In this document: piece by piece, positions 3,882-16,423 of the stretch
How the letters are laid out: each line of letters starts with the position of its first letter
Numbering within the stretch: the first letter of the stretch is position 1
From: Candidatus Eiseniibacteriota bacterium
Lineage (GTDB): Bacteria > Eisenbacteria > RBG-16-71-46 > DASYSL01
NCBI GenBank assembly: GCA_031431875.1
Contig: JANPEF010000021.1
Location: 1-18,318 of the forward strand
Direction of reading: 5' to 3'
DNA length: 18,318 nucleotides
Position numbers and translations under genes: made by a program
Notes under the pieces: generated by a model
What the model was told of the DNA's origin: nothing
The model's input: only the letters and a program-made list of their open reading frames with translations
The model's database searches: none

Positions 3882-4445
3882 ATGGGTCAGGGAATGATGG
3901 GACTGATCAAGGGCGTGTGGTGGATCTTCCTCGTGAAGGGGATCCTGGGGATCCTGTTCGGCCTGATGGCGTTGTTCATGCCCGGCGTAGCGATGGCCTC
4001 GCTGGTGATGGCGTTCGGGGCCTACGCCTTCGTCGACGGCGCCTCGACGCTGTGGGCCGCGATCAAGAACCGGAAGGCCGACGGCCAGTGGTGGCTGCTC
4101 GCGCTCGAGGGCCTGCTCGGTCTGGTGATCGGATGGATGGCGCTGAGCTCGCCGGGAACGGTGTCGCTCGCGTTCCTCATGTTCTATGCGATCTGGGCGA
4201 TCTTCGGCGGTGTGCTGCGGATCCTCACGGCCCTGCGCCTGCGCAAGGAGATCGAGGGCGAGTGGTTCATGATCGCCGGCGGCGTGATCTCGGTGCTGTT
4301 CGGCGGCTTCCTGCTGACCCAGCCCGTGGCCGGCCTGGTGAGCATCATGTGGATGATCGGCGCGTTCGCGCTCATCGTCGGGATCAGCCTGGTGATGCTG
4401 GCGATGAAGGCCCGCGGATTCGCCAAGAAGGTCACGGCCGCGTAG
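3882..4445 (+). CDS. HdeD/DUF308 family acid-resistance membrane protein, 187 aa
   Basis: About six hydrophobic segments, with WWIFLVKGILGILFGL...P, FGAYAFVDG and ALRLRKEIEGEW motifs. GGAGG RBS at 3871-3875. Confidence 0.88.
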   Translation: MGQGMMGLIKGVWWIFLVKGILGILFGLMALFMPGVAMASLVMAFGAYAFVDGASTLWAAIKNRKADGQWWLLALEGLLGLVIGWMALSSPGTVSLAFLMFYAIWAIFGGVLRILTALRLRKEIEGEWFMIAGGVISVLFGGFLLTQPVAGLVSIMWMIGAFALIVGISLVMLAMKARGFAKKVTAA

Positions 4446-8419: not shown

Positions 8420-8602
8420 ATGGCAGTTCCGAAGCGACGACACTCCAGCACCCGCGGCAAGAAGCGGCGCACCAACTGGAAGCTCAAGACCATGGATGTC
8501 GGCCCCTGCGCCCATTGCGGACAGCCGCGCCTGCCGCATCGCATCTGCGCGAACTGCGGCCACTACGGCGGCGAAGAGGTTCTCGTTCCCCGTAACGCGT
8601 GA
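8420..8602 (+). CDS. rpmF: 50S ribosomal protein L32 (Zn-ribbon type)
   Basis: MAVPKRRHSSTRGKKRRT, CAHC...PHRICANCGHY. Confidence 0.97.
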   Translation: MAVPKRRHSSTRGKKRRTNWKLKTMDVGPCAHCGQPRLPHRICANCGHYGGEEVLVPRNA

Positions 8603-9651
8603 GCTCCGCTCCGGACACGAGTGCGGCGCGAGGCGGAATCCCGACCATCGGCGTGGATGCCATGGGCGGGGATTTCGGCGCGCCCGTCATCGTGCCCGGC
8701 GTGGTGATGGCGCTCCGGGAGTTCCCGGGGCGTTTCCGGATTGCGCTCCTGGGGGATCTCGACGCCATGCGGGCTGAAGTCGCCCGCGCCCGCGCGACCG
8801 ACCTGCCGATCGAACTGGTCCACGCGCCCGAACGGGTCGAGATGGACGATCAACCCTCCACGGTGCTCCGGCGCAAGCCGCAATCCTCGCTCGCCATCGC
8901 CACGACGATGCAGAAGGAACGGAAGCTCGACGCGTTCTTCAGCGCCGGCTCGACCGGCGCGGTCGTCGCCGTGTCGCTGCTCGGCCTCGGCCGCCTCGAC
9001 GGCGTGAGCCGGCCGGCGATCGCCTCGATCTTCCCCAACCGCGGCAAGGGTTGCGTGGTCCTCGACGTCGGTGCGACCTCCGATTGCAAGGCCCTGCACC
9101 TGGTCCAGTTCGCCGAGATGGGCTCGTGCTACGCGCACGATGTGCTGGGCATGGCGGCACCCCGGGTGGGGCTGCTGTCGATCGGTGAGGAGTCATCGAA
9201 GGGAGATGAACTGCGCCAGGAGACCAACGGGCTGCTGGCGCAGATCGCGAACCTCAACTTCATCGGCAACGTCGAAGGGCGCGACATCCTCAAGGGAGGC
9301 GTGGACGTGGTGGTGACCGACGGGTTCACCGGCAACATCGTCCTCAAGCTGGCCGAATCCGTGATCGGACACGTCGCCCGCAGCTTTCGCCAGGAGATCG
9401 GGCGCAACCTGCAGGCGAAACTCGGCGCGCTGCTGCTCAAGCCCGCGTTCGACCAGATGAAGCAGCAGTTCGACTACGCCGAGTACGGCGGGGCGCCCTT
9501 GCTGGGCGTTGACGGGGTGATCTTCATCGGCCATGGCAGCTCGTCCCCGCGCGCCATCCGCAGCGCGATCCGGTCGACCTGCACGTTCGTCGAGCAGCGC
9601 GTCAACGAACACATCCCGCAACTCCTGAGGAACGTCCATGCCGAAGCCTGA
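8599..9651 (+). CDS. plsX: phosphate acyltransferase PlsX
   Basis: VDAMGGDF, SAGSTGA, RPAI, GNVEGRD, VVTDGFTGN, YGGAPLLG and GHGSS. GTGA overlap with rpmF. Confidence 0.96.
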   Translation: MSSAPDTSAARGGIPTIGVDAMGGDFGAPVIVPGVVMALREFPGRFRIALLGDLDAMRAEVARARATDLPIELVHAPERVEMDDQPSTVLRRKPQSSLAIATTMQKERKLDAFFSAGSTGAVVAVSLLGLGRLDGVSRPAIASIFPNRGKGCVVLDVGATSDCKALHLVQFAEMGSCYAHDVLGMAAPRVGLLSIGEESSKGDELRQETNGLLAQIANLNFIGNVEGRDILKGGVDVVVTDGFTGNIVLKLAESVIGHVARSFRQEIGRNLQAKLGALLLKPAFDQMKQQFDYAEYGGAPLLGVDGVIFIGHGSSSPRAIRSAIRSTCTFVEQRVNEHIPQLLRNVHAEA

Positions 9652-10714
9652 TCGCCCGCGCGGCGCCGTCATCGCCGGCACCGGCCGGGCACTGCCCGAG
9701 CGGGTCCTGTCCAATGCCGATCTCGAGAAGATGGTCGAGACGTCGGACGAGTGGATCGTCTCGCGCACCGGGATCCGTGAACGGCGCATGGTCGCCCCGG
9801 GACAGGACAACTCGGACCTCGCGTCCGCAGCCGCGCGCCTTGCGCTCGAGGCCGCTGGGCTCTCGGCCGACGACGTCGATCACATCTTCGTCGCCACCGT
9901 CACGCCGGATCGCATCCTGCCGTCGATGGCCTGCACGGTGCAGCAGAAGCTGGGCGCCACGCACGCCGCCGCGCTCGACATCAACGCCGCGTGCTCGGGC
10001 TTCCTCTACGGCCTGCAGATCGCGCAGGCGCTCGTCACCTCCGGCGCGTCCGACACCGTGCTCGTGATCGGCTCCGAGACCCTGACGCGCATCGTCGATT
10101 TCGAGGATCGCAACACCTGCGTGCTGTTCGGCGACGGCGCCGGAGCGGCGGTCGTCCGCCCGTGCGAGGCCGGAGTCGGCGTGCTCGCGGTCAAGCTGGG
10201 CGCCGACGGCGGCCAGGGCGACATGCTCACCGTGCCGGCCGGTGGCTCGCAGAAGCCCGCGACGCACGAGACGGTCGCCGCGCGCGAGCACTTCATCAAG
10301 ATGCGCGGCAACGAGCTGTTCAAGTTCGCGGTGCGCGCCATGGAGTCGATCTCGCGCGACGCGCTGGTCGAGGCCGGCCGCGACGCCTCGGAGCTGACCG
10401 CACTGATCCCGCACCAGGCGAACCGTCGCATCATCGACGCGACGGCCGAGCGCCTGGGGATCGCCAGCGAGAAGGTGTTCATGAACCTCGACCGCTACGG
10501 CAACACGTCGGCGGCGTCGGTGCCGATCCTGCTCGACGAGGTCGTGCGCGACGGCCGCATCAAGCAGGGCGACCTGCTCGAGCTGGTCGCCTTCGGCGGC
10601 GGCGTGACGTGGGGCGCGGCGGTGACGACGTGGGATCCGGCGGCGGCGTGGCCCGTCGAGGCGCGCGAGGCGCGGACCTCGATCGCCGCGGTCAAGACCG
10701 GGGCGCCGGCGTGA
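9638..10714 (+). CDS. fabH: 3-oxoacyl-ACP synthase III
   Basis: ETSDEWIVSRTGIRERR, catalytic Cys (AACSGF), His (PHQAN) and Asn (YGNTSAAS), LFGDGAGA, FGGG. Confidence 0.97.
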   Translation: MPKPDRPRGAVIAGTGRALPERVLSNADLEKMVETSDEWIVSRTGIRERRMVAPGQDNSDLASAAARLALEAAGLSADDVDHIFVATVTPDRILPSMACTVQQKLGATHAAALDINAACSGFLYGLQIAQALVTSGASDTVLVIGSETLTRIVDFEDRNTCVLFGDGAGAAVVRPCEAGVGVLAVKLGADGGQGDMLTVPAGGSQKPATHETVAAREHFIKMRGNELFKFAVRAMESISRDALVEAGRDASELTALIPHQANRRIIDATAERLGIASEKVFMNLDRYGNTSAASVPILLDEVVRDGRIKQGDLLELVAFGGGVTWGAAVTTWDPAAAWPVEAREARTSIAAVKTGAPA

Positions 10715-11661
10715 CGATCGCATTCCTCTTCCCGGGGCAGGGCTCGCAGGTCGTCGGCATGGGCAAGGCCCTCGCCGACGCCTTCCCCGAGGCCAGGGCC
10801 GCCTTCGCCGAGGCCGACGACGCCCTCGGCTTCGCGCTGACCGAGGTGATGTGGAACGGTCCCGAGGACACGCTCAAGGCCACCGAGAACGCGCAGGTCG
10901 CGTTGCTCGCGCATTCGGTCGCCGCGTTGCGCGTCGTCACGGCGCGCGGCGTCACGCCGGTCGCGGCCGCGGGACACTCGCTCGGCGAGTACAGCGCGCA
11001 TGTCGCCGCGGGCTCGCTCGCGTTCGCCGACGCGATCCGCCTGGTGCGCCGGCGCGGTGAACTGATGGCCGAGGCGGGAAGAGTTCGACCGGGCGGGATG
11101 GCTGCCATCCTGGGCCTCCCGGGCGAAGCGGTCGAAACGGTGTGCGCCGGATTGACTGCCGACGGGAGAGGAACGGTTGCTCCCGCGAACTTCAACTCGC
11201 CGGGGCAGGTCGTGATCTCGGGCGAGATCGACGCGGTCGAGGCCGCGATGGTCGCCTGCAAGGAGGCCGGCGCCAGGCGCGCGCTCCGGCTGCCGGTTTC
11301 GGGCGCGTTCCACTCGCCGCTCATGGGCCCCGCTGCCGAGGGCCTGGTCGCGGCGCTCGCCGCGGTGACCGTGAACGACGCGCACTGCCCGGTGATCGCC
11401 AACGTCGATGCGCGGCCGGTCACCGCCGCGGCCGACATTCGCGACCGCCTGGGGCGCCAACTCCTCGGTGCCGTGCGCTGGGAGGAGTCGATGCGCCATC
11501 TCGTCCTTAGCGGCACGGGCGCGTTCGTCGAACTGGGGACGGGCAAGGTGCTGCGCGGGCTCCTGCGCCAGATCGCGCCCGAGGCGAAGAGTGCCAACGT
11601 CGACGACCCGGCGAGCCTCGACGAGGCGCTCGCCCTCGTGACCGAAGGGGCCACGTCGTGA
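10711..11661 (+). CDS. fabD: malonyl-CoA:ACP transacylase, 316 aa
   Basis: [40 protein letters not shown] and VRWEES. GTG start at 10711 overlapping the fabH stop. Confidence 0.97.
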
Positions 11662-12410
11662 GCGCGCGCGAGCTGGACGGGCAGGTGGCGATCGTCACCG
11701 GTGGGGCGACCGGCATCGGCCGCGCCATCGTCGATGTGCTGGCGCGCGATGGCGCGACCGTGGCCGTGATCGCCCGCAATCTCGAACGCGCCGAGGCTGC
11801 GTGCGCCGAGGTGCGCGCCCAGGGCGGCACTGCGCAGGCGTTCGCCGCCGACGTGGCCGACGCCGCGGCCGTGCAGGCCGCGTTCGATGCCGTGTTGAAG
11901 GACTTGTCGCGCATCGATATTCTGGTCAACAACTCGGGCGTGACCAGGGACGGACTCGTCCTGCGCATGACCGACGCCCAGTGGGGCGAAGTGCTGGCCA
12001 CCAACCTGACCGGCACCTTCCACTGCTGCCGCGCCGCGGCGCGCACGCTCCTCAAGCAGAAGAGCGGCCGCATCGTGAACATCGCGTCGGTGGTGGGGCA
12101 GATGGGCAACGCCGGCCAGGCCAACTACGTCGCCTCCCAGGCGGGCGTGATCGGCCTGACCAAGGCGCTGGCAAAGGAGTTCGCTCCGCGCGGTGTGACG
12201 GTGAACGCGGTGGCGCCGGGATTCATCCGTACGGCGATGACCGATGCGCTCACCGAGGTACAGCAGCAAGCGATGTTCGCGGCGATTCCTCTCGGACGAT
12301 TCGGCGAAGCCGCCGACGTCGCGGAGGCGGTCCGCTTCCTTGCCTCACCCCGCGCTGGCTACGTGACCGGACAGGTCTGGAACGTGGACGGCGGGATGGT
12401 GATGGCCTGA
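11658..12410 (+). CDS. fabG: 3-oxoacyl-ACP reductase (SDR) with an atypical YxxxQ active site
   Basis: [48 protein letters not shown] and [13 protein letters not shown]. Lies between fabD and acpP. Confidence 0.93.
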
Positions 12411-12471
12411 GTCGTACCCAAACCCGCGGGATGACCCCGCGGGATCCCTGCATCAGAAGGAGGTGAACGGA

Positions 12472-12708
12472 ATGGCTTATAGCGAAGAGAAGGCCAAGGA
12501 GATCATCGCCAAGAACCTCGAGGTCTCCGTCGACCAGCTCGCTCCCGAGGCCAAGTTCATCGAGGACCTCGGCGCCGATTCGCTCGACACCGTCGAGCTC
12601 GTCATGGCGCTCGAGGAGGAGTTCGGCCTGGACATCCACGACGAGGACGCAGACAAGTTCAAGACCGTGGGTGACGCCCTGAACTACCTGAAGGAACACG
12701 CGCAGTGA
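12472..12708 (+). CDS. acpP: acyl carrier protein, 78 aa
   Basis: [21 protein letters not shown] phosphopantetheine motif. Strong RBS AAGGAGGTGA at 12457-12466. Confidence 0.97.
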
Positions 12709-12759
12709 CGCGGGGCGGGGGAGGCCCGGACGCACCGCGATCCGGGTCCCCCTCCGCGT
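12708..12759 (+). terminator. imperfect GC-rich hairpin after acpP (partial terminator or 3' stabiliser)
   Basis: GCCCGGA (12724-12730)/TCCGGGT (12741-12747), GGGGG/CCCCC and ACGCGG/CCGCGT arms. No T-tract. Confidence 0.45.
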
Positions 12760-12800
12760 AGCAAACCCGGAGCAACCACCACCTCTTCGCAGGGACGATC

Positions 12801-14066
12801 GTGAACGCAGACCGCAAGGGAAAGATCGTGATCACCGGCATCGGCGTCGTGAGCCCCCTGGGCAACGACGTCGAGTCGATGTGGTCCGCCCTGGTCGCGG
12901 GCAGGAGCGGCGTGGGACCCATCACGCGCTTCGACGCCTCGACCGGCTACGCCACGCGCATCGCCGCGGAGGTGAAGGGCTTCGATCCCACCGTCTGGAT
13001 GGAGCGCAAGGACGCCAAGCGGAATGACCGCTTCGTCCAGCTCGGCGTGGCCGCCGCCGCACAGGCGGTGGAGTCCGCGCGCCTCGACATGAACACGGTC
13101 GACGCGAACCGCGTCGGCGTGATCATCGGTTCGGGCATCGGTGGGATCGGTACCTTCGAAGAGCAGCACACGAATCTCATCCAGAAGGGACCCGAACGGG
13201 TCTCGCCCTTCTTCATCCCGATGATGATCAGCAACATGGCCTCCGGCCAGATCTCGATCCACACCGGGGCGAAGGGACCGAACTTCACGACCGTGTCCGC
13301 CTGCACCTCATCGGCGAATGCGATCGGGGAGGCGCTGCGCTGTCTGCAGCACGACGACGCGGACGTGGTCATCACCGGAGGCACCGAAGCGACGGTCACG
13401 CCGATGGCGATCGCCGGCTTCAGCTCGATGAAGGCCATGTCCACAAGGAACGACGAACCAACCCGGGCCTCCAGGCCCTTCGACGCCGAACGTGACGGCT
13501 TCGTCATGGGCGAAGGCGCCGTGATGCTCGTGATCGAGAAGGAGGAGCACGCCATCAAGCGCGGCGCTCCGATCCTCTGCGAACTCGCGGGCTACGGAGC
13601 GTCCGGCGACGCGTATCACATCACCACCCCGATGCCTGACGGCGATGGCGCCGTGCGCGCCATGCGCCAGGCGTTGAATGACGCGGGAATGAAGCCCGAG
13701 GACGTGACGTACATCAACGCCCACGGCACTTCGACTCCCTACAACGACCGCACCGAGACGGTGGCGGTCAAGCGTCTGTTCGGGGAACACGCACGGAAGC
13801 TCATGCTGGCTTCGACGAAGTCCATGACCGGCCATCTCCTCGGCGCCGCGGGCGCCCTTGAGGCCGCGATCTGTGCATTGGTGATCACGCGTGGTGTCGT
13901 TCCGCCCACCATCAACTACGAGAACCCGGATCCCGAATGCGACCTAGACTGCGTACCGAATCAAGCCCGAACCGTCCCAGTGACGGCGGCACTCTCGAAC
14001 TCGATGGGGTTCGGCGGACACAACGGCAGCCTGGCGTTCCGGGCGATGCCGAAGCCGGCCGCCTGA
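12801..14066 (+). CDS. fabF: 3-oxoacyl-ACP synthase II
   Basis: [12 protein letters not shown], catalytic Cys (VSACTSS), [38 protein letters not shown] and GFGGHN. Confidence 0.97.
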
Positions 14067-16423
14067 ACGTCGAACGCACACGCCGCAGCCGCCGCGACGA
14101 TCGGGGCGACCGCCCCGACCGCGCGCCGCGTGGCGCCAGCTCCGATCGCGGAGAGCGCGGCGAACGAAGCGAGCGCACCTCGCGCCGCGAGCCGCGCGCC
14201 GAAGGCAGGAGCGAGTTCCGCACCGACCGAGGCGATCGTGCTGACCGCGGCGAGCGCAGCGAGCGTGCACCGCGCAGCGAACGCTCCGAACGCTCCGATC
14301 GCGGTGCACGCAGCGATCGCAGCGAGCGTGGCGAGCGTCGCGACCGCGGGGACCGCGGCGGGCGTTCCGATCGTGGCGGACGCGGTTATCGCGGCGGCAG
14401 CCGCGGCGACCGCCCGGCCACTGCCAGCAGCGGCTCGCGTCGCCCCGAGGCGGCGGCTCGCCAGGGCGGCGGATTCTTCAGCGGGCTGATCGCCTCGATC
14501 AAGAGCTTCTTCACCTCGAAGCCGGTCGGCACACGCACCGGAATCGCCGACGAGGCCAAGGCGATCGAGGAGTTCCAGCGACACCTGGGCATCACGTTCA
14601 ACGACACGGAGCTCCTGAAAACGTCGCTCACCCACCGGTCGTTCCTGCACATCGCCCGCGGCACGTCGAAGCAGTCGAACGAGCGGCTCGAGTTCCTGGG
14701 CGACTCGGTCCTCGGCGTCATCGTGTCCGAGCAGCTGTTCAAGAAGTTCCCCGACGAGCACGAGGGCCAGCTCACCAAGACCAAGTCGCTGCTGGTGAGC
14801 AAGGCGATCCTGTCGCGGCGGGCGCTGGCCATGGGCCTGGGCCGCTTCATGCTGATGTCGAACTCCGAGGTGGACTCCGGCGGACGGCAGCGCTTGTCGA
14901 TCCTCGCCGACGCGTTCGAGTCGGTTCTCGGCGCCATCTACCTCGACCAGGGACTCGATGCGGCGCGGACGTTCGTCGACACGTGGCTCCTGTCCGAGGC
15001 CAAGGGCATCGTCCAGGACAAGCGGCACACCAACTACAAGAGCCTGCTGCAGGAGTACGTGCAGAGCGCGTTCCACACCCACCCCGTGTACCGGATCCGC
15101 CACGAGCACGGTCCCGACCATTCGAAGCTGTTCACGGTCGAGGTCATGGTCAGCGGCAAGAACCTGGGCTCGGGCAAGGGCAAGAACAAGAAAGAGGCCG
15201 AGCAGTCGGCGGCGCGGGACGCACTCGACCGCGTGGCCGCCGAGTCCGGCGAGAAGCGTGCCGAGCGCAGCGAGCGGCCGGAGCGGGCCGAGCGCGCGGA
15301 GCGTGGGGATCGTCCGGAGCGTGCGGAACGTCCGGAGCGTAGCGACCGGCCGGAACGCAGCGAGCGAGGAGATCGTCCCCTGCGGGCCGATCGTGCAGAT
15401 CGTCCGGAGCGCGCCGACCGTCCGGAGCGCGCGGATCGCGAGGAGCGTCCGGACCGCGAAGAGCGTCCGGATCGTGGAGAGCGTGGCGAGCGCGGGGTCC
15501 GACGTGGTCGTGGCGATCGTCCGGAGCGCACACCGCGCGGGCTCGAGGCCGAGCCGATCGTCGCCGAGGATCTTGATTACCTCGTCGAGCGTCCGGCGCG
15601 CGTACCCCGCGAGGACCGGGCGCCCCGCGAGGAGCGAGCGCCGCGGATGGAACGTGCGATGCGCGAGGACCGCCCGCTGCGCGAGCCGCGTGAAGAGCGT
15701 GCGCCGCGCGAGATGGACGAGCCGCTGGGCGAGCGGGCGGAACGACCGGAGCGCGAGGCGCGTCCCGAGCGCGATCGCCCGGAGCGTCCGGATCGGGGCC
15801 GCGATCGCGGACCGCGTCCGGATCGCGAGCCGCGTGCGGAACGCGAGGCCCGTCCGGAGCGCGAAGCGCGTCCCGACCGCGAGCCGCGCGAAGAGCGTGC
15901 GCCACGCGAGGAGCGTCCGCCACGCGAACCACGTGAAGAGCGTGCGCCGCGTCCGGAACGCGAACCGCGTCCGGCCGTCGAGCGCCCGGCATTCGGTTCG
16001 GCGCCGCGTCGCAGTGACGAAGTTTTGGCAGCGCCGCGTCCGGCGGCGGCCTCGATCGACCTCTCGGGCGCGAGCCTGCAGTGGGAGACCGAGCCCTCGC
16101 GGCCGGCCGCGCGCGAAAGCAAGAGCTTCGGCCGGAGTGCGCCGGTCAAGTCGCGCACCGGTGGCGTCGCTCCGCCGCAGTCGGATCCGTCGCGCGTGCG
16201 CAGCGTCAGCGAGTCGCCGGCGTCCGCGCCGGTCGCCCCGTCGGCCTCGACCGTGACCCAGTCGTCCACGACGACGTACAAGGTCGATGCGCAGGTGCGC
16301 GAGGTGAAGGGCCCGTTGCCGGGCGTCGACGCGTCGCGCTACCGCGCCGCCGAAGCGCCGGCATCGGCCTTCTCCAGCGACACGCCGACGGCGTGGGACG
16401 AAGAGCCGAAGGAACACGAATGA
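14063..16423 (+). CDS. rnc: ribonuclease III with very long N- and C-terminal low-complexity extensions (786 aa from the proposed CTG start; 828 aa from ATG 13937)
   Basis: LTHRS, signature NERLEFLGDSVL (E at 14681), ADAFESVLGAIYLDQG, and dsRBD NYKSLLQE...GPDHSKLFTVEV...GKGKNKKEAEQSAARDAL. Follows fabF as is common for rnc. The start position is uncertain. Confidence 0.93.
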   Translation: MNVERTRRSRRDDRGDRPDRAPRGASSDRGERGERSERTSRREPRAEGRSEFRTDRGDRADRGERSERAPRSERSERSDRGARSDRSERGERRDRGDRGGRSDRGGRGYRGGSRGDRPATASSGSRRPEAAARQGGGFFSGLIASIKSFFTSKPVGTRTGIADEAKAIEEFQRHLGITFNDTELLKTSLTHRSFLHIARGTSKQSNERLEFLGDSVLGVIVSEQLFKKFPDEHEGQLTKTKSLLVSKAILSRRALAMGLGRFMLMSNSEVDSGGRQRLSILADAFESVLGAIYLDQGLDAARTFVDTWLLSEAKGIVQDKRHTNYKSLLQEYVQSAFHTHPVYRIRHEHGPDHSKLFTVEVMVSGKNLGSGKGKNKKEAEQSAARDALDRVAAESGEKRAERSERPERAERAERGDRPERAERPERSDRPERSERGDRPLRADRADRPERADRPERADREERPDREERPDRGERGERGVRRGRGDRPERTPRGLEAEPIVAEDLDYLVERPARVPREDRAPREERAPRMERAMREDRPLREPREERAPREMDEPLGERAERPEREARPERDRPERPDRGRDRGPRPDREPRAEREARPEREARPDREPREERAPREERPPREPREERAPRPEREPRPAVERPAFGSAPRRSDEVLAAPRPAAASIDLSGASLQWETEPSRPAARESKSFGRSAPVKSRTGGVAPPQSDPSRVRSVSESPASAPVAPSASTVTQSSTTTYKVDAQVREVKGPLPGVDASRYRAAEAPASAFSSDTPTAWDEEPKEHE
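14075..14461 (+). repeat. coding low-complexity (D/E)R(G/S/A/P) tripeptide repeats and RGG-like tract, N-terminal to the RNase III domain
   Basis: Translation DRGDRPDRAPR...ERSERSDRGARSDRSERGERRDRGDRGGRSDRGGRGYRGG. Degenerate 9-nt periodicity. Confidence 0.85.
15242..15985 (+). repeat. coding low-complexity (E/D)R(P/A) and PREERAPRE repeats, C-terminal to the dsRBD
   Basis: ERAERSERPERAERAERGDRPERAERPER...DREPRAEREARPEREARPDREPREERAPREERPPREPREERAPRPEREPR. Confidence 0.88.

Follow-up and report, generated by a model that had tools for sequence, protein, structure and literature searches.

The spatial separation of RNA decay from transcription, a topic of present interest in the cell biology of bacteria, rests so far on RNase E and RNase II, which carry amphipathic helices, and on RNase Y, which has a transmembrane helix. 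RNase III is treated as soluble, and its class 1 enzymes are homodimers. In E. coli, an intrinsic amphipathic helix is required for membrane binding of both RNase II and RNase E, according to excerpts of PMC4274665, and the membrane-targeting sequence of RNase E is given as about 15 residues (PMC13657362, in part). Green fluorescent protein (GFP) with a tandem MinD helix attaches to the membrane far better than GFP with a single helix (PMC13537761, in part). Here we describe a candidate helix of this type on an RNase III. The protein is encoded by the gene rnc in an 18,318-nucleotide (nt) stretch of DNA (the window; 69% GC) from Candidatus Eiseniibacteriota bacterium (contig JANPEF010000021.1 of assembly GCA_031431875.1), and the segment in question lies directly ahead of the catalytic domain. 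While amphipathic membrane-targeting helices are known from ribonucleases and from MinD, such a helix on an RNase III would be new; no description of one was found among the titles and abstracts listed in our searches of the freely accessible literature. The preliminary description of this DNA held RNase III to be normally cytoplasmic. This is roughly right: E. coli RNase III was once reported to be enriched in inner-membrane fractions, an old report that later imaging contradicts (PMC8708148, in part).

The hydrophobic segment GGGFFSGLIASIKSFFTSK, which contains the core helix FFSGLIASIKSFF, is read in frame within the rnc open reading frame (ORF), in agreement with the preliminary description (coordinates of all features are in Table 1). 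Plotted on a helical wheel at 100 degrees per residue, F180, F181, L184, I185, I188, F191 and F192 lie within an arc of 140 degrees, and the segment contains no Asp or Glu; the claimed i/i+3/i+4/i+7 spacing and lack of acidic residues are both correct. Ser, Gly and Lys had been placed on the opposite face, which is true of the Ser, Gly, Ala and Thr residues and of K189, but K195, were it part of the helix, would point from the middle of the hydrophobic arc (the predicted helix ends at residue 192). Outside these seven residues, only V45, F94, Y151 and V197 of residues 44-202 are F, I, L, M, V, W or Y. The motif is therefore the only hydrophobic island of the N-terminal extension, as first proposed. 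It also lies just before the RNase III domain, the first helix of which begins at about residue 200, with the TIGR02191 match starting at residue 213 and the Ribonucleas_3_3 match at residue 223. Neither a transmembrane helix nor a signal peptide fits: the former takes some 18 or more consecutive apolar residues and the latter a signal at the N-terminus, whereas this helix has 13 residues, one Lys and three Ser among them, and lies 179 residues from the N-terminus.

Hydrophobic moments (µH) and mean hydrophobicities (H) were calculated on a HeliQuest-type (Fauchere-Pliska) scale, and interfacial free energies on the Wimley-White scale. The 14-mer GFFSGLIASIKSFF (residues 179-192) is the highest 14-mer of the whole protein, with µH 0.60 and H 0.83. 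For the 15-mer GFFSGLIASIKSFFT, which starts at residue 179, we obtained µH 0.547 and H 0.795, a moment reached by 0.6% of shuffles. The Wimley-White interfacial minimum of the whole protein (-4.12 kcal/mol) falls on the 15-mer that starts at residue 178, and GFFSGLIASIKSFFT sums to -3.99 kcal/mol.

Conservation was evaluated among related proteins and, at the DNA level, among related loci. A first homologue search returned 554 long RNase III proteins, of which the named ones are mostly 'Candidatus Eisenbacteria', and many of the 554 have a GFWAWLKRLF- or SLWAWLKSLF-like motif ahead of the domain. A scan of one genome per species gave 80 loci; most of their titles are Eisenbacteria or Eiseniibacteriota, many are 'uncultured bacterium' or 'bacterium', and five name another phylum or class. 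The counts out of 79 given below refer to 78 of these loci plus the window, leaving out L079 (5' end cut) and L070 (in-frame stop in the first domain helix). Every one of the 79 loci with upstream DNA has an aligned amphipathic motif (78 of 78 alignable loci, and L070), so the hydrophobic pattern is conserved in orthologues, a check that the preliminary description had proposed. L070 carries the motif as SFWGWLRSLF, with the upstream frame intact, and its stop stands where the others have Cys (EF*HHFG, at about nt 3990-4010); the explanation may be a pseudogene, an error in sequencing or a recoded codon.

In the DNA-derived alignment the motif typically reads S/G-F-W-x-W-L-K/R-x-L-F. By position, we counted S in 55 and G in 19 of the 79 (position 1); F in 52, L in 18 and W in 7 (position 2); W in 57, L in 10 and F in 8 (position 3); W in 71 (position 5); L in 71 (position 6); K in 36 and R in 19 (position 7); L in 73 (position 9); and F in 72 (position 10), with positions 4 and 8 variable. 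The mean frequency of the top residue is 0.84 at the six hydrophobic columns versus 0.39 at the three polar columns; the linker after the motif scores 0.31 and the often Pro-rich linker before it 0.43. The linker between motif and domain has 10-35 residues in the relatives (median 19) and is often Pro-rich. Basic residues are common: K or R occurs at most five residues upstream of the motif in 65/79 and on the polar face in 55/79, and an acidic residue occurs inside the motif in 10/79. The 78 related 11-mers have a median µH of 0.61 (range 0.48-0.81) and a median H of 0.94. In 78 of the 79 the moment of the motif exceeds that of every other window of the N-terminal extension, and in 72 it is reached by at most 5% of shuffles. 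The computation shows that it is the amphipathic pattern, and not the exact sequence, that is conserved.

The copy in the window is divergent. It reads GFF-SGLI-ASIKSFF where relatives have GFF-AWLKSLF, and the four-residue insertion is found only here and in L031. Both Trp have been lost and SGLI (about one turn) has been gained, with the hydrophobic face still in phase. Loss of Trp and gain of one turn with amphipathicity kept argues for selection on amphipathicity, and against a sequence-specific docking motif.

The helix is not confined to these relatives. An exhaustive HMMER search of 1.84 billion cluster representatives (50% identity) was made and the best 150 were analysed, with a helix defined as an acid-free 11-mer of µH at least 0.5 and H at least 0.4. 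Among these best 150, 87 have at least 14 residues before the domain, and 40 of the 87 contain such a helix versus 5.9 expected from composition-preserving shuffles. A sister lineage (the P0144 family, P0266-P0383), with about 55% core identity to the window and three named records labelled Eisenbacteria, starts with the motif M-[NK]-[FL]-[LI]-R-K-L-F-G-L-D-[RK]-P in most of the 120 members listed; the remainder are shorter gene models. A further search, with a profile of 27 short helix-bearing RNase III proteins, added 116 new proteins, of which 110 have an extension and 49 of those 110 a helix by the same definition. The named distant relatives with a helix are Eisenbacteria, Handelsmanbacteria and Cloacimonas. 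The RNase III of Handelsmanbacteria (P0491) begins MGWLNALFRPWRR. Since the helix occurs beyond the window's clade, it seems to be older than the Arg-rich extension that precedes it there.

The helix is part of the translated protein. GC content by codon position is 0.35/0.55/0.95 in the motif, comparable to 0.63/0.38/0.95 in the catalytic core, and the conserved Leu columns vary synonymously among the loci (CTC 37 and CTG 31 in one; CTG 56, CTC 12 and TTG 4 in another). The start codon, ATG 13937, is located 130 nt ahead of the stop codon of fabF, and arises from the Glu and Cys codons in PECDLD, a FabF motif. Between 13937 and 14723, the latter already within the catalytic domain, the frame contains no ATG, GTG or TTG. 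Across the 79 loci, fabF lies directly 5' of rnc with identical frame offset in every case, and all have an in-frame ATG within the overlap (118 nt long in 68/79, and 130 nt in the window). There is no canonical start between the fabF stop and the motif in 68/79, and none that would leave the domain complete in 48/79. Thus, for want of alternative start codons, we place the start of rnc inside fabF.

Two further indications of the start were evaluated and rejected. The conserved first 40 or so residues (MRPRFRS...LELVRVRG) are the conserved FabF C-terminus (PECDLD...FGFGGHN) read in another frame, so their conservation is not independent evidence. Nor is the open rnc frame across the overlap informative, as alternative frames stay open for 134-558 codons upstream in this GC-rich DNA. 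Many database gene models of this RNase III family begin inside or after the amphipathic motif. These are likely truncated calls, as the DNA indicates a start inside fabF, and the models can be corrected to this start.

Structure prediction places a helix where the moment does. In the full-length AlphaFold2 model the helix spans residues 180-192 (pLDDT, the predicted local distance difference test, is 74 for the block 181-190), and its flanks are disordered (pLDDT <50). With these low values on either side and the Arg content of the sequence upstream, the helix has the disordered context near an Arg-rich segment that the preliminary description gave for the RNase E membrane-targeting sequence. 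In a shorter model the helix spans residues 182-189 with pLDDT 43-51, compared with about 90 for the domain, and is not packed confidently. The preliminary description had named confident packing on the nuclease domain as an outcome that would speak against a membrane helix; the shorter model gives none, and the block value in the full-length model is 74.

Taken together, and by computation only, the best-supported explanation of the motif is reversible membrane tethering. The segment is probably, if with no great margin of confidence, a reversible in-plane anchor that tethers the RNase III dimer to the cytoplasmic face of the inner membrane. It would insert into the lipid interface with the face that consists of Phe, Leu and Ile (in relatives, of Trp, Leu and Phe), while the flanking Lys and Arg and the upstream Arg/Gly block would give a preference for anionic lipids, for RNA, or for both. 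As class 1 RNase III is a homodimer, each enzyme would present two helices, both weak, and binding could be reversible through an avidity like that of MinD; the comparison of tandem and single MinD helices is the basis of this argument. The processing of double-stranded RNA (dsRNA) might thereby be concentrated at the membrane, in analogy to tethered RNase E, RNase II and RNase Y.

Several points weigh against this explanation. We infer every step that leads from an amphipathic helix to membrane binding. The moment, which is not low for the 14-mer and 15-mer, is only 0.38 for the 19-residue segment as delimited in the preliminary description (H 0.573), and 6.5% of shuffles reach it; on the Eisenberg scale the 19-mer is unremarkable (µH 0.22, H 0.387, 32% of shuffles), an absence of signal to which the positive Gly value of that scale probably contributes. 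The helix is short (9-13 residues), and a single MinD-type helix binds weakly. The pLDDT of 74 in the full-length model, and a linker to the domain of just about 7 residues in the window, would also suit a helix that is held in place. W, L, L and F show about 90% conservation within the main clade, which is tighter than pure lipid binding requires, and a specific protein partner would fit as well. Finally, the task for which RNase III is best known, the co-transcriptional processing of precursor ribosomal RNA, is associated with the nucleoid in E. coli (PMC8708148, in part), which fits poorly with permanent anchoring at the membrane.

The last but one of these points leads to another explanation, in which the helix serves as a short linear motif by which RNase III docks onto a protein partner or associates with itself, and binds a hydrophobic groove much as RNase E microdomains, within that enzyme's C-terminal half, recruit degradosome partners. 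Retention of W, L, L and F in 71-73 of the 79 each, as identities and not merely as hydrophobic residues, is consistent with docking, as are the placement of the motif within a long disordered region that holds other conserved islands and the confidence of the helix in the full-length model. We nonetheless consider docking unlikely, as the window copy has replaced both Trp, inserted one turn and kept only the amphipathic pattern, the sister lineage has F-L-R-K-L-F-G-L at this place, and distant RNase III proteins carry unrelated amphipathic N-terminal sequences; moreover, the polar face varies freely, and no candidate partner is known. Alternatively, the helix could pack on its own nuclease or dsRNA-binding domain, as an extra structural helix or an autoinhibitory lid, and never be at the membrane. 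The short linker in the window and the same block of higher pLDDT are compatible with this, and in many related RNase III proteins an N-terminal segment prone to form a helix stands immediately ahead of the first helix of the domain. Yet the linkers of relatives are unconserved as well as longer and often rich in Pro, which suits a tether over fixed packing, the helix is much less confidently predicted than the domain in the shorter model, and solved bacterial chains match from residue 205 on, with no equivalent of the motif. Such packing is, in our judgement, quite improbable.

A very improbable role for the aromatic and hydrophobic patch is that of a 'sticker' in condensates formed by the charged disordered extensions, which would make an RNase III body comparable to bacterial ribonucleoprotein bodies (BR-bodies), again with no binding to the membrane. 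BR-bodies assemble by phase separation of RNase E (PMC13657362, in part), and both extensions of the window protein are long and disordered, the N-terminal one with a net charge of +15 and RGG-like repeats and the C-terminal one with 30% R, 22% E and a net charge of 0. One short patch would be weak, however, and neither a strict helical periodicity nor an acid-free, basic-flanked composition is needed for condensation. The sister lineage and many RNase III of about 250 residues also carry the helix without long charged extensions. A last alternative is that no such peptide is made, or that it arises by chance from a frame left open in GC-rich DNA. The base composition of the window and its abundant long spurious ORFs (an 818-residue mirror ORF on the minus strand among them) give some reason for such caution, and so do the first 43 codons of rnc, which overlap fabF and owe their conservation to FabF. 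Against this stand the lack of any other canonical start upstream of the catalytic domain, amino-acid conservation accompanied by synonymous codon changes, a GC content at third codon positions (GC3) of 0.95 as in the core, and the presence of the motif in 79/79 informative loci, all of which make a chance product extremely improbable.

Were reversible membrane tethering confirmed, such a helix on an RNase III that also has RNase E-like Arg-rich and disordered regions would show that membrane tethering of RNA processing evolved repeatedly on unrelated nucleases. It would also point to a lineage that localises the cleavage of dsRNA rather than that of single strands. A broader and rather doubtful proposal gives RNase III, in place of RNase E or RNase Y, the part of a membrane-tethered hub in the RNA processing of Eisenbacteria, and perhaps of candidate phyla close to them, with disordered regions as its scaffold. 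The MinD-like helix, the RGG/Arg blocks that bind RNA and the polyampholyte tail of about 390 residues, with its conserved short motifs, would then make a dsRNA nuclease that is normally soluble the organiser of a degradosome- or condensate-like assembly at the membrane, and the helix would be an old, so far overlooked feature of this RNase III branch, present in several uncultured lineages. Literature on Eisenbacteria includes nothing on RNase III among the matches listed, most of which are environmental studies or genome surveys. A GFP fusion of the peptide would be a cheap heterologous test of membrane tethering, although the organisms are uncultured.

Table 1. Features of the fabF-rnc region of the window. 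Residues are those of the rnc product.
Feature	Residues	Position (nt)	Strand	Basis and remarks
fabF (beta-ketoacyl-acyl carrier protein synthase II)		12801..14066	+	Pfam ketoacyl-synt and Ketoacyl-synt_C; shares its last 130 nt with the start of rnc, which is read in another frame
rnc ORF, class 1 bacterial RNase III	828 aa in all	13937..16423	+	Pfam, NCBIfam; N-terminal extension aa 1-199, C-terminal extension aa 442-828
Part of rnc overlapping fabF	1-43	13937..14066	+	ATG 13937 is the sole canonical start giving a complete catalytic domain
Disordered Arg/Gly/Ser/Asp/Glu-rich extension	44-176	14067..14464	+	Composition; pLDDT <50
Hydrophobic segment GGGFFSGLIASIKSFFTSK	177-195	14465..14521	+	In-frame translation of ORF 13937..16423
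Core amphipathic helix FFSGLIASIKSFF	180-192	14474..14512	+	AlphaFold2 helix, moment, conservation; proposed in-plane membrane anchor
Short flexible linker from the helix to the first domain helix	193-199	14513..14533	+	pLDDT <50 at aa 194-199
RNase III catalytic (endonuclease) domain	200-360	14534..15016	+	AlphaFold2 pLDDT mostly 80-95 (blocks 54-95); NERLEFLGD; D325/E328
dsRNA-binding domain	367-431	15035..15229	+	Pfam dsrm, E 2.5e-18; alpha-beta-beta-beta-alpha fold in the model
Disordered C-terminal extension	442-828	15260..16420	+	Arg/Glu/Pro polyampholyte with tandem repeats, then a Ser/Ala/Pro-rich tail

The enzyme itself is confidently identified as an RNase III. One nuclease domain is followed by one dsRNA-binding domain, both in Pfam and in the AlphaFold2 model. 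We identified Ribonucleas_3_3 (PF14622) at residues 223-353, with a score of 122.2 versus a cut-off of 35, and dsrm (PF00035) with 66.8 versus 23, and the NCBIfam equivalog TIGR02191 matches residues 213-432 with 247.9 bits (cut-off 166.25). The NERLEFLGD signature corresponds to residues 248-256, and E249, E252, D256, D325 and E328 are invariant in a 38-sequence alignment (A2); these presumably correspond to the catalytic residues in the E. coli RNase III numbering. The nearest solved chain, 1o0w (annotated Ribonuclease III, E 1e-48), covers only residue 205 onward. Matching solved bacterial RNase III chains have 220-252 residues, and start 1-23 residues before the aligned region.

Most of the remaining protein is predicted to be disordered, with pLDDT <50 at residues 3-179 and at nearly all of residues 460-828 in the full-length model. 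Residues 44-176 comprise 32% R, 14% G and 13% S, have a net charge of +15 and include only 3 hydrophobic residues in 133. An RGG-like (Arg-Gly-Gly) stretch lies at about residues 131-165 (nt 14327-14431), and 14294-14397 contains a tandem repeat of period 36. Compared with relatives, the window protein has an N-terminal extension that is about 65-110 residues longer, the surplus being Arg/Asp/Glu/Ser/Gly repeats with a 36-nt period that include the RGG-like stretch. In place of these repeats, the relatives have a compact R-x-RRRGGRGRRR block (mean top-residue frequency 0.77). In the C-terminal extension, residues 442-700 are 30% R, 22% E and 16% P, and tandem repeats with periods of 9, 18, 27, 30, 36 and 45 occur between 15255 and 15948. 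GC3 is 0.76 in both extensions versus 0.95 in the catalytic core and the motif; thus, codon usage of the repeat-rich extensions differs from that of the remaining gene.

Conserved islands occur within the variable C-terminal tail in the family alignments. These are a RRRRGRRGGRGRR block, EE-x-GRPEGP...DPY, and a C-terminal [FY]-G-R-[RK]. The last of these is SFGRS in the window (residues 730-734), with G732 and R733 invariant in A2. The islands may be partner-binding or RNA-binding motifs.

The window also encodes a tetratricopeptide repeat (TPR) protein, beta-carbonic anhydrase, sucC, sucD, ndk and a family-5 solute-binding protein. Upstream of rnc, which is the last gene of the group, is a conserved lipid-synthesis cluster (8599-14066) of yceD, plsX, fabH, fabD, fabG, acpP (12463-12708) and fabF. 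Linkage of rnc to a fab/acp cluster occurs in other bacteria too, so linkage alone is no evidence for a role at the membrane. An Rfam scan of the whole window gave no match, hence no recognised RNA leader element here. The mirror ORF on the minus strand extends over 13961-16417, and other long ORFs overlap rnc in other frames. These look like by-products of GC-rich, repeat-rich coding DNA, not genes. The five loci with other labels (L009, L014, L016, L065 and L076, labelled Limnocylindria, Udaeobacter, Saccharimonadaceae, Verrucomicrobiia and Methylomirabilota, respectively) have the same fabF-rnc junction and match the window core at about 64-71% identity. Noise in binning or labelling seems likelier than presence of the gene in those phyla.

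Of the described systems, the one first proposed as a parallel was the membrane-targeting sequence ('segment A') of E. coli RNase E, where the protein reads PAQPGLLSRFFGALKALFSGGEE and continues with an Arg-rich stretch (L082 translation). In both enzymes a Phe/Leu-rich helix of some 15 residues belongs to a disordered, non-catalytic part of an endoribonuclease, with a Pro-rich stretch before it, small residues at its end and an Arg-rich segment nearby. In the same scoring as was used for the window 15-mer, the RNase E 15-mer LLSRFFGALKALFSG has µH 0.594 and H 0.714 (0.547 and 0.795 in the window). The order of elements differs. In RNase E, which is a tetramer, the helix is C-terminal to the catalytic domain and the Arg-rich segment follows it; here the sequence runs from an Arg-rich part through Pro or Gly and the helix into the catalytic domain. 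The host protein here is an RNase III and not a member of the RNase E/G family, and the enzymes are unrelated. Given unrelated hosts and a peptide too short for homology, the label 'RNase E-like' holds as an analogy of working principle: moment and hydrophobicity match, but the sequence is closer to anchors of the MinD type.

The C-terminal helix of MinD is the closest in sequence. The B. subtilis anchor is printed as KGMMAKIKSFFG in the excerpted PMC13537761, and E. coli MinD ends EEEKKGFLKRLFGG. The window IASIKSFFT shares 6 of 9 positions with MAKIKSFFG of B. subtilis MinD, including the common IKSFF, and GFLAWLKKLFGG of the relatives and MNFLRKLFGL of the sister lineage resemble KKGFLKRLFGG of E. 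coli MinD. The MinD-type peptide pattern ([FL]-[LI]-[KR]-[KR]-L-F-G or K-I-K-S-F-F-G) is thus represented by IKSFF in the window, by W-L-K-x-L-F-G in relatives and by F-L-R-K-L-F-G-L in the sister lineage. Also shared are a helix of 9-13 residues, basic flanks and, for MinD, weakness of the single helix, with binding that rises with copy number (PMC13537761, in part). Wimley-White sums are -3.99 kcal/mol for the window 15-mer, a median of -5.1 for the 11-mers of relatives and -3.21 for the E. coli RNase E 15-mer, compared with -0.56 for the E. coli MinD 10-mer and +0.26 for the B. subtilis MinD 12-mer. Unlike the helix described here, which is internal or N-terminal on a presumably constitutive dimeric nuclease, that of MinD is at the extreme C-terminus of an ATPase that ATP switches to the dimer. 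The two almost certainly resemble each other by convergence.

The primary paper on the membrane helix of RNase II is said to be that of Lu and Taghbalout in 2013. In E. coli RNase II, as here, an amphipathic helix is N-terminal to the catalytic part of a ribonuclease, and it is needed for membrane association (PMC4274665, in part); the enzyme is an exoribonuclease of unrelated fold, and we liken the two by description. The polar face in the window, almost all Ser, Gly, Ala and Thr with two Lys, opposite Phe, Leu and Ile, recalls the amphipathic lipid packing sensor (ALPS) motifs. These have 20-40 residues, a Ser/Thr/Gly polar face and few charges. The helix here has 13 residues, and relatives carry K or R on the polar face (55/79), so we do not assign it to this class.

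A loose parallel to the N-terminal extension is found in Drosha, the N-terminus of which is Pro-rich and Arg/Ser-rich (PMC8708148, in part). With the canonical class 1 RNase III of E. coli, Aquifex and Thermotoga, the window protein shares both domains and all the catalytic acidic residues, with a score above the equivalog cut-off. It differs from them in the addition of about 200 residues in front, where the putative membrane anchor is located, and about 390 residues behind.

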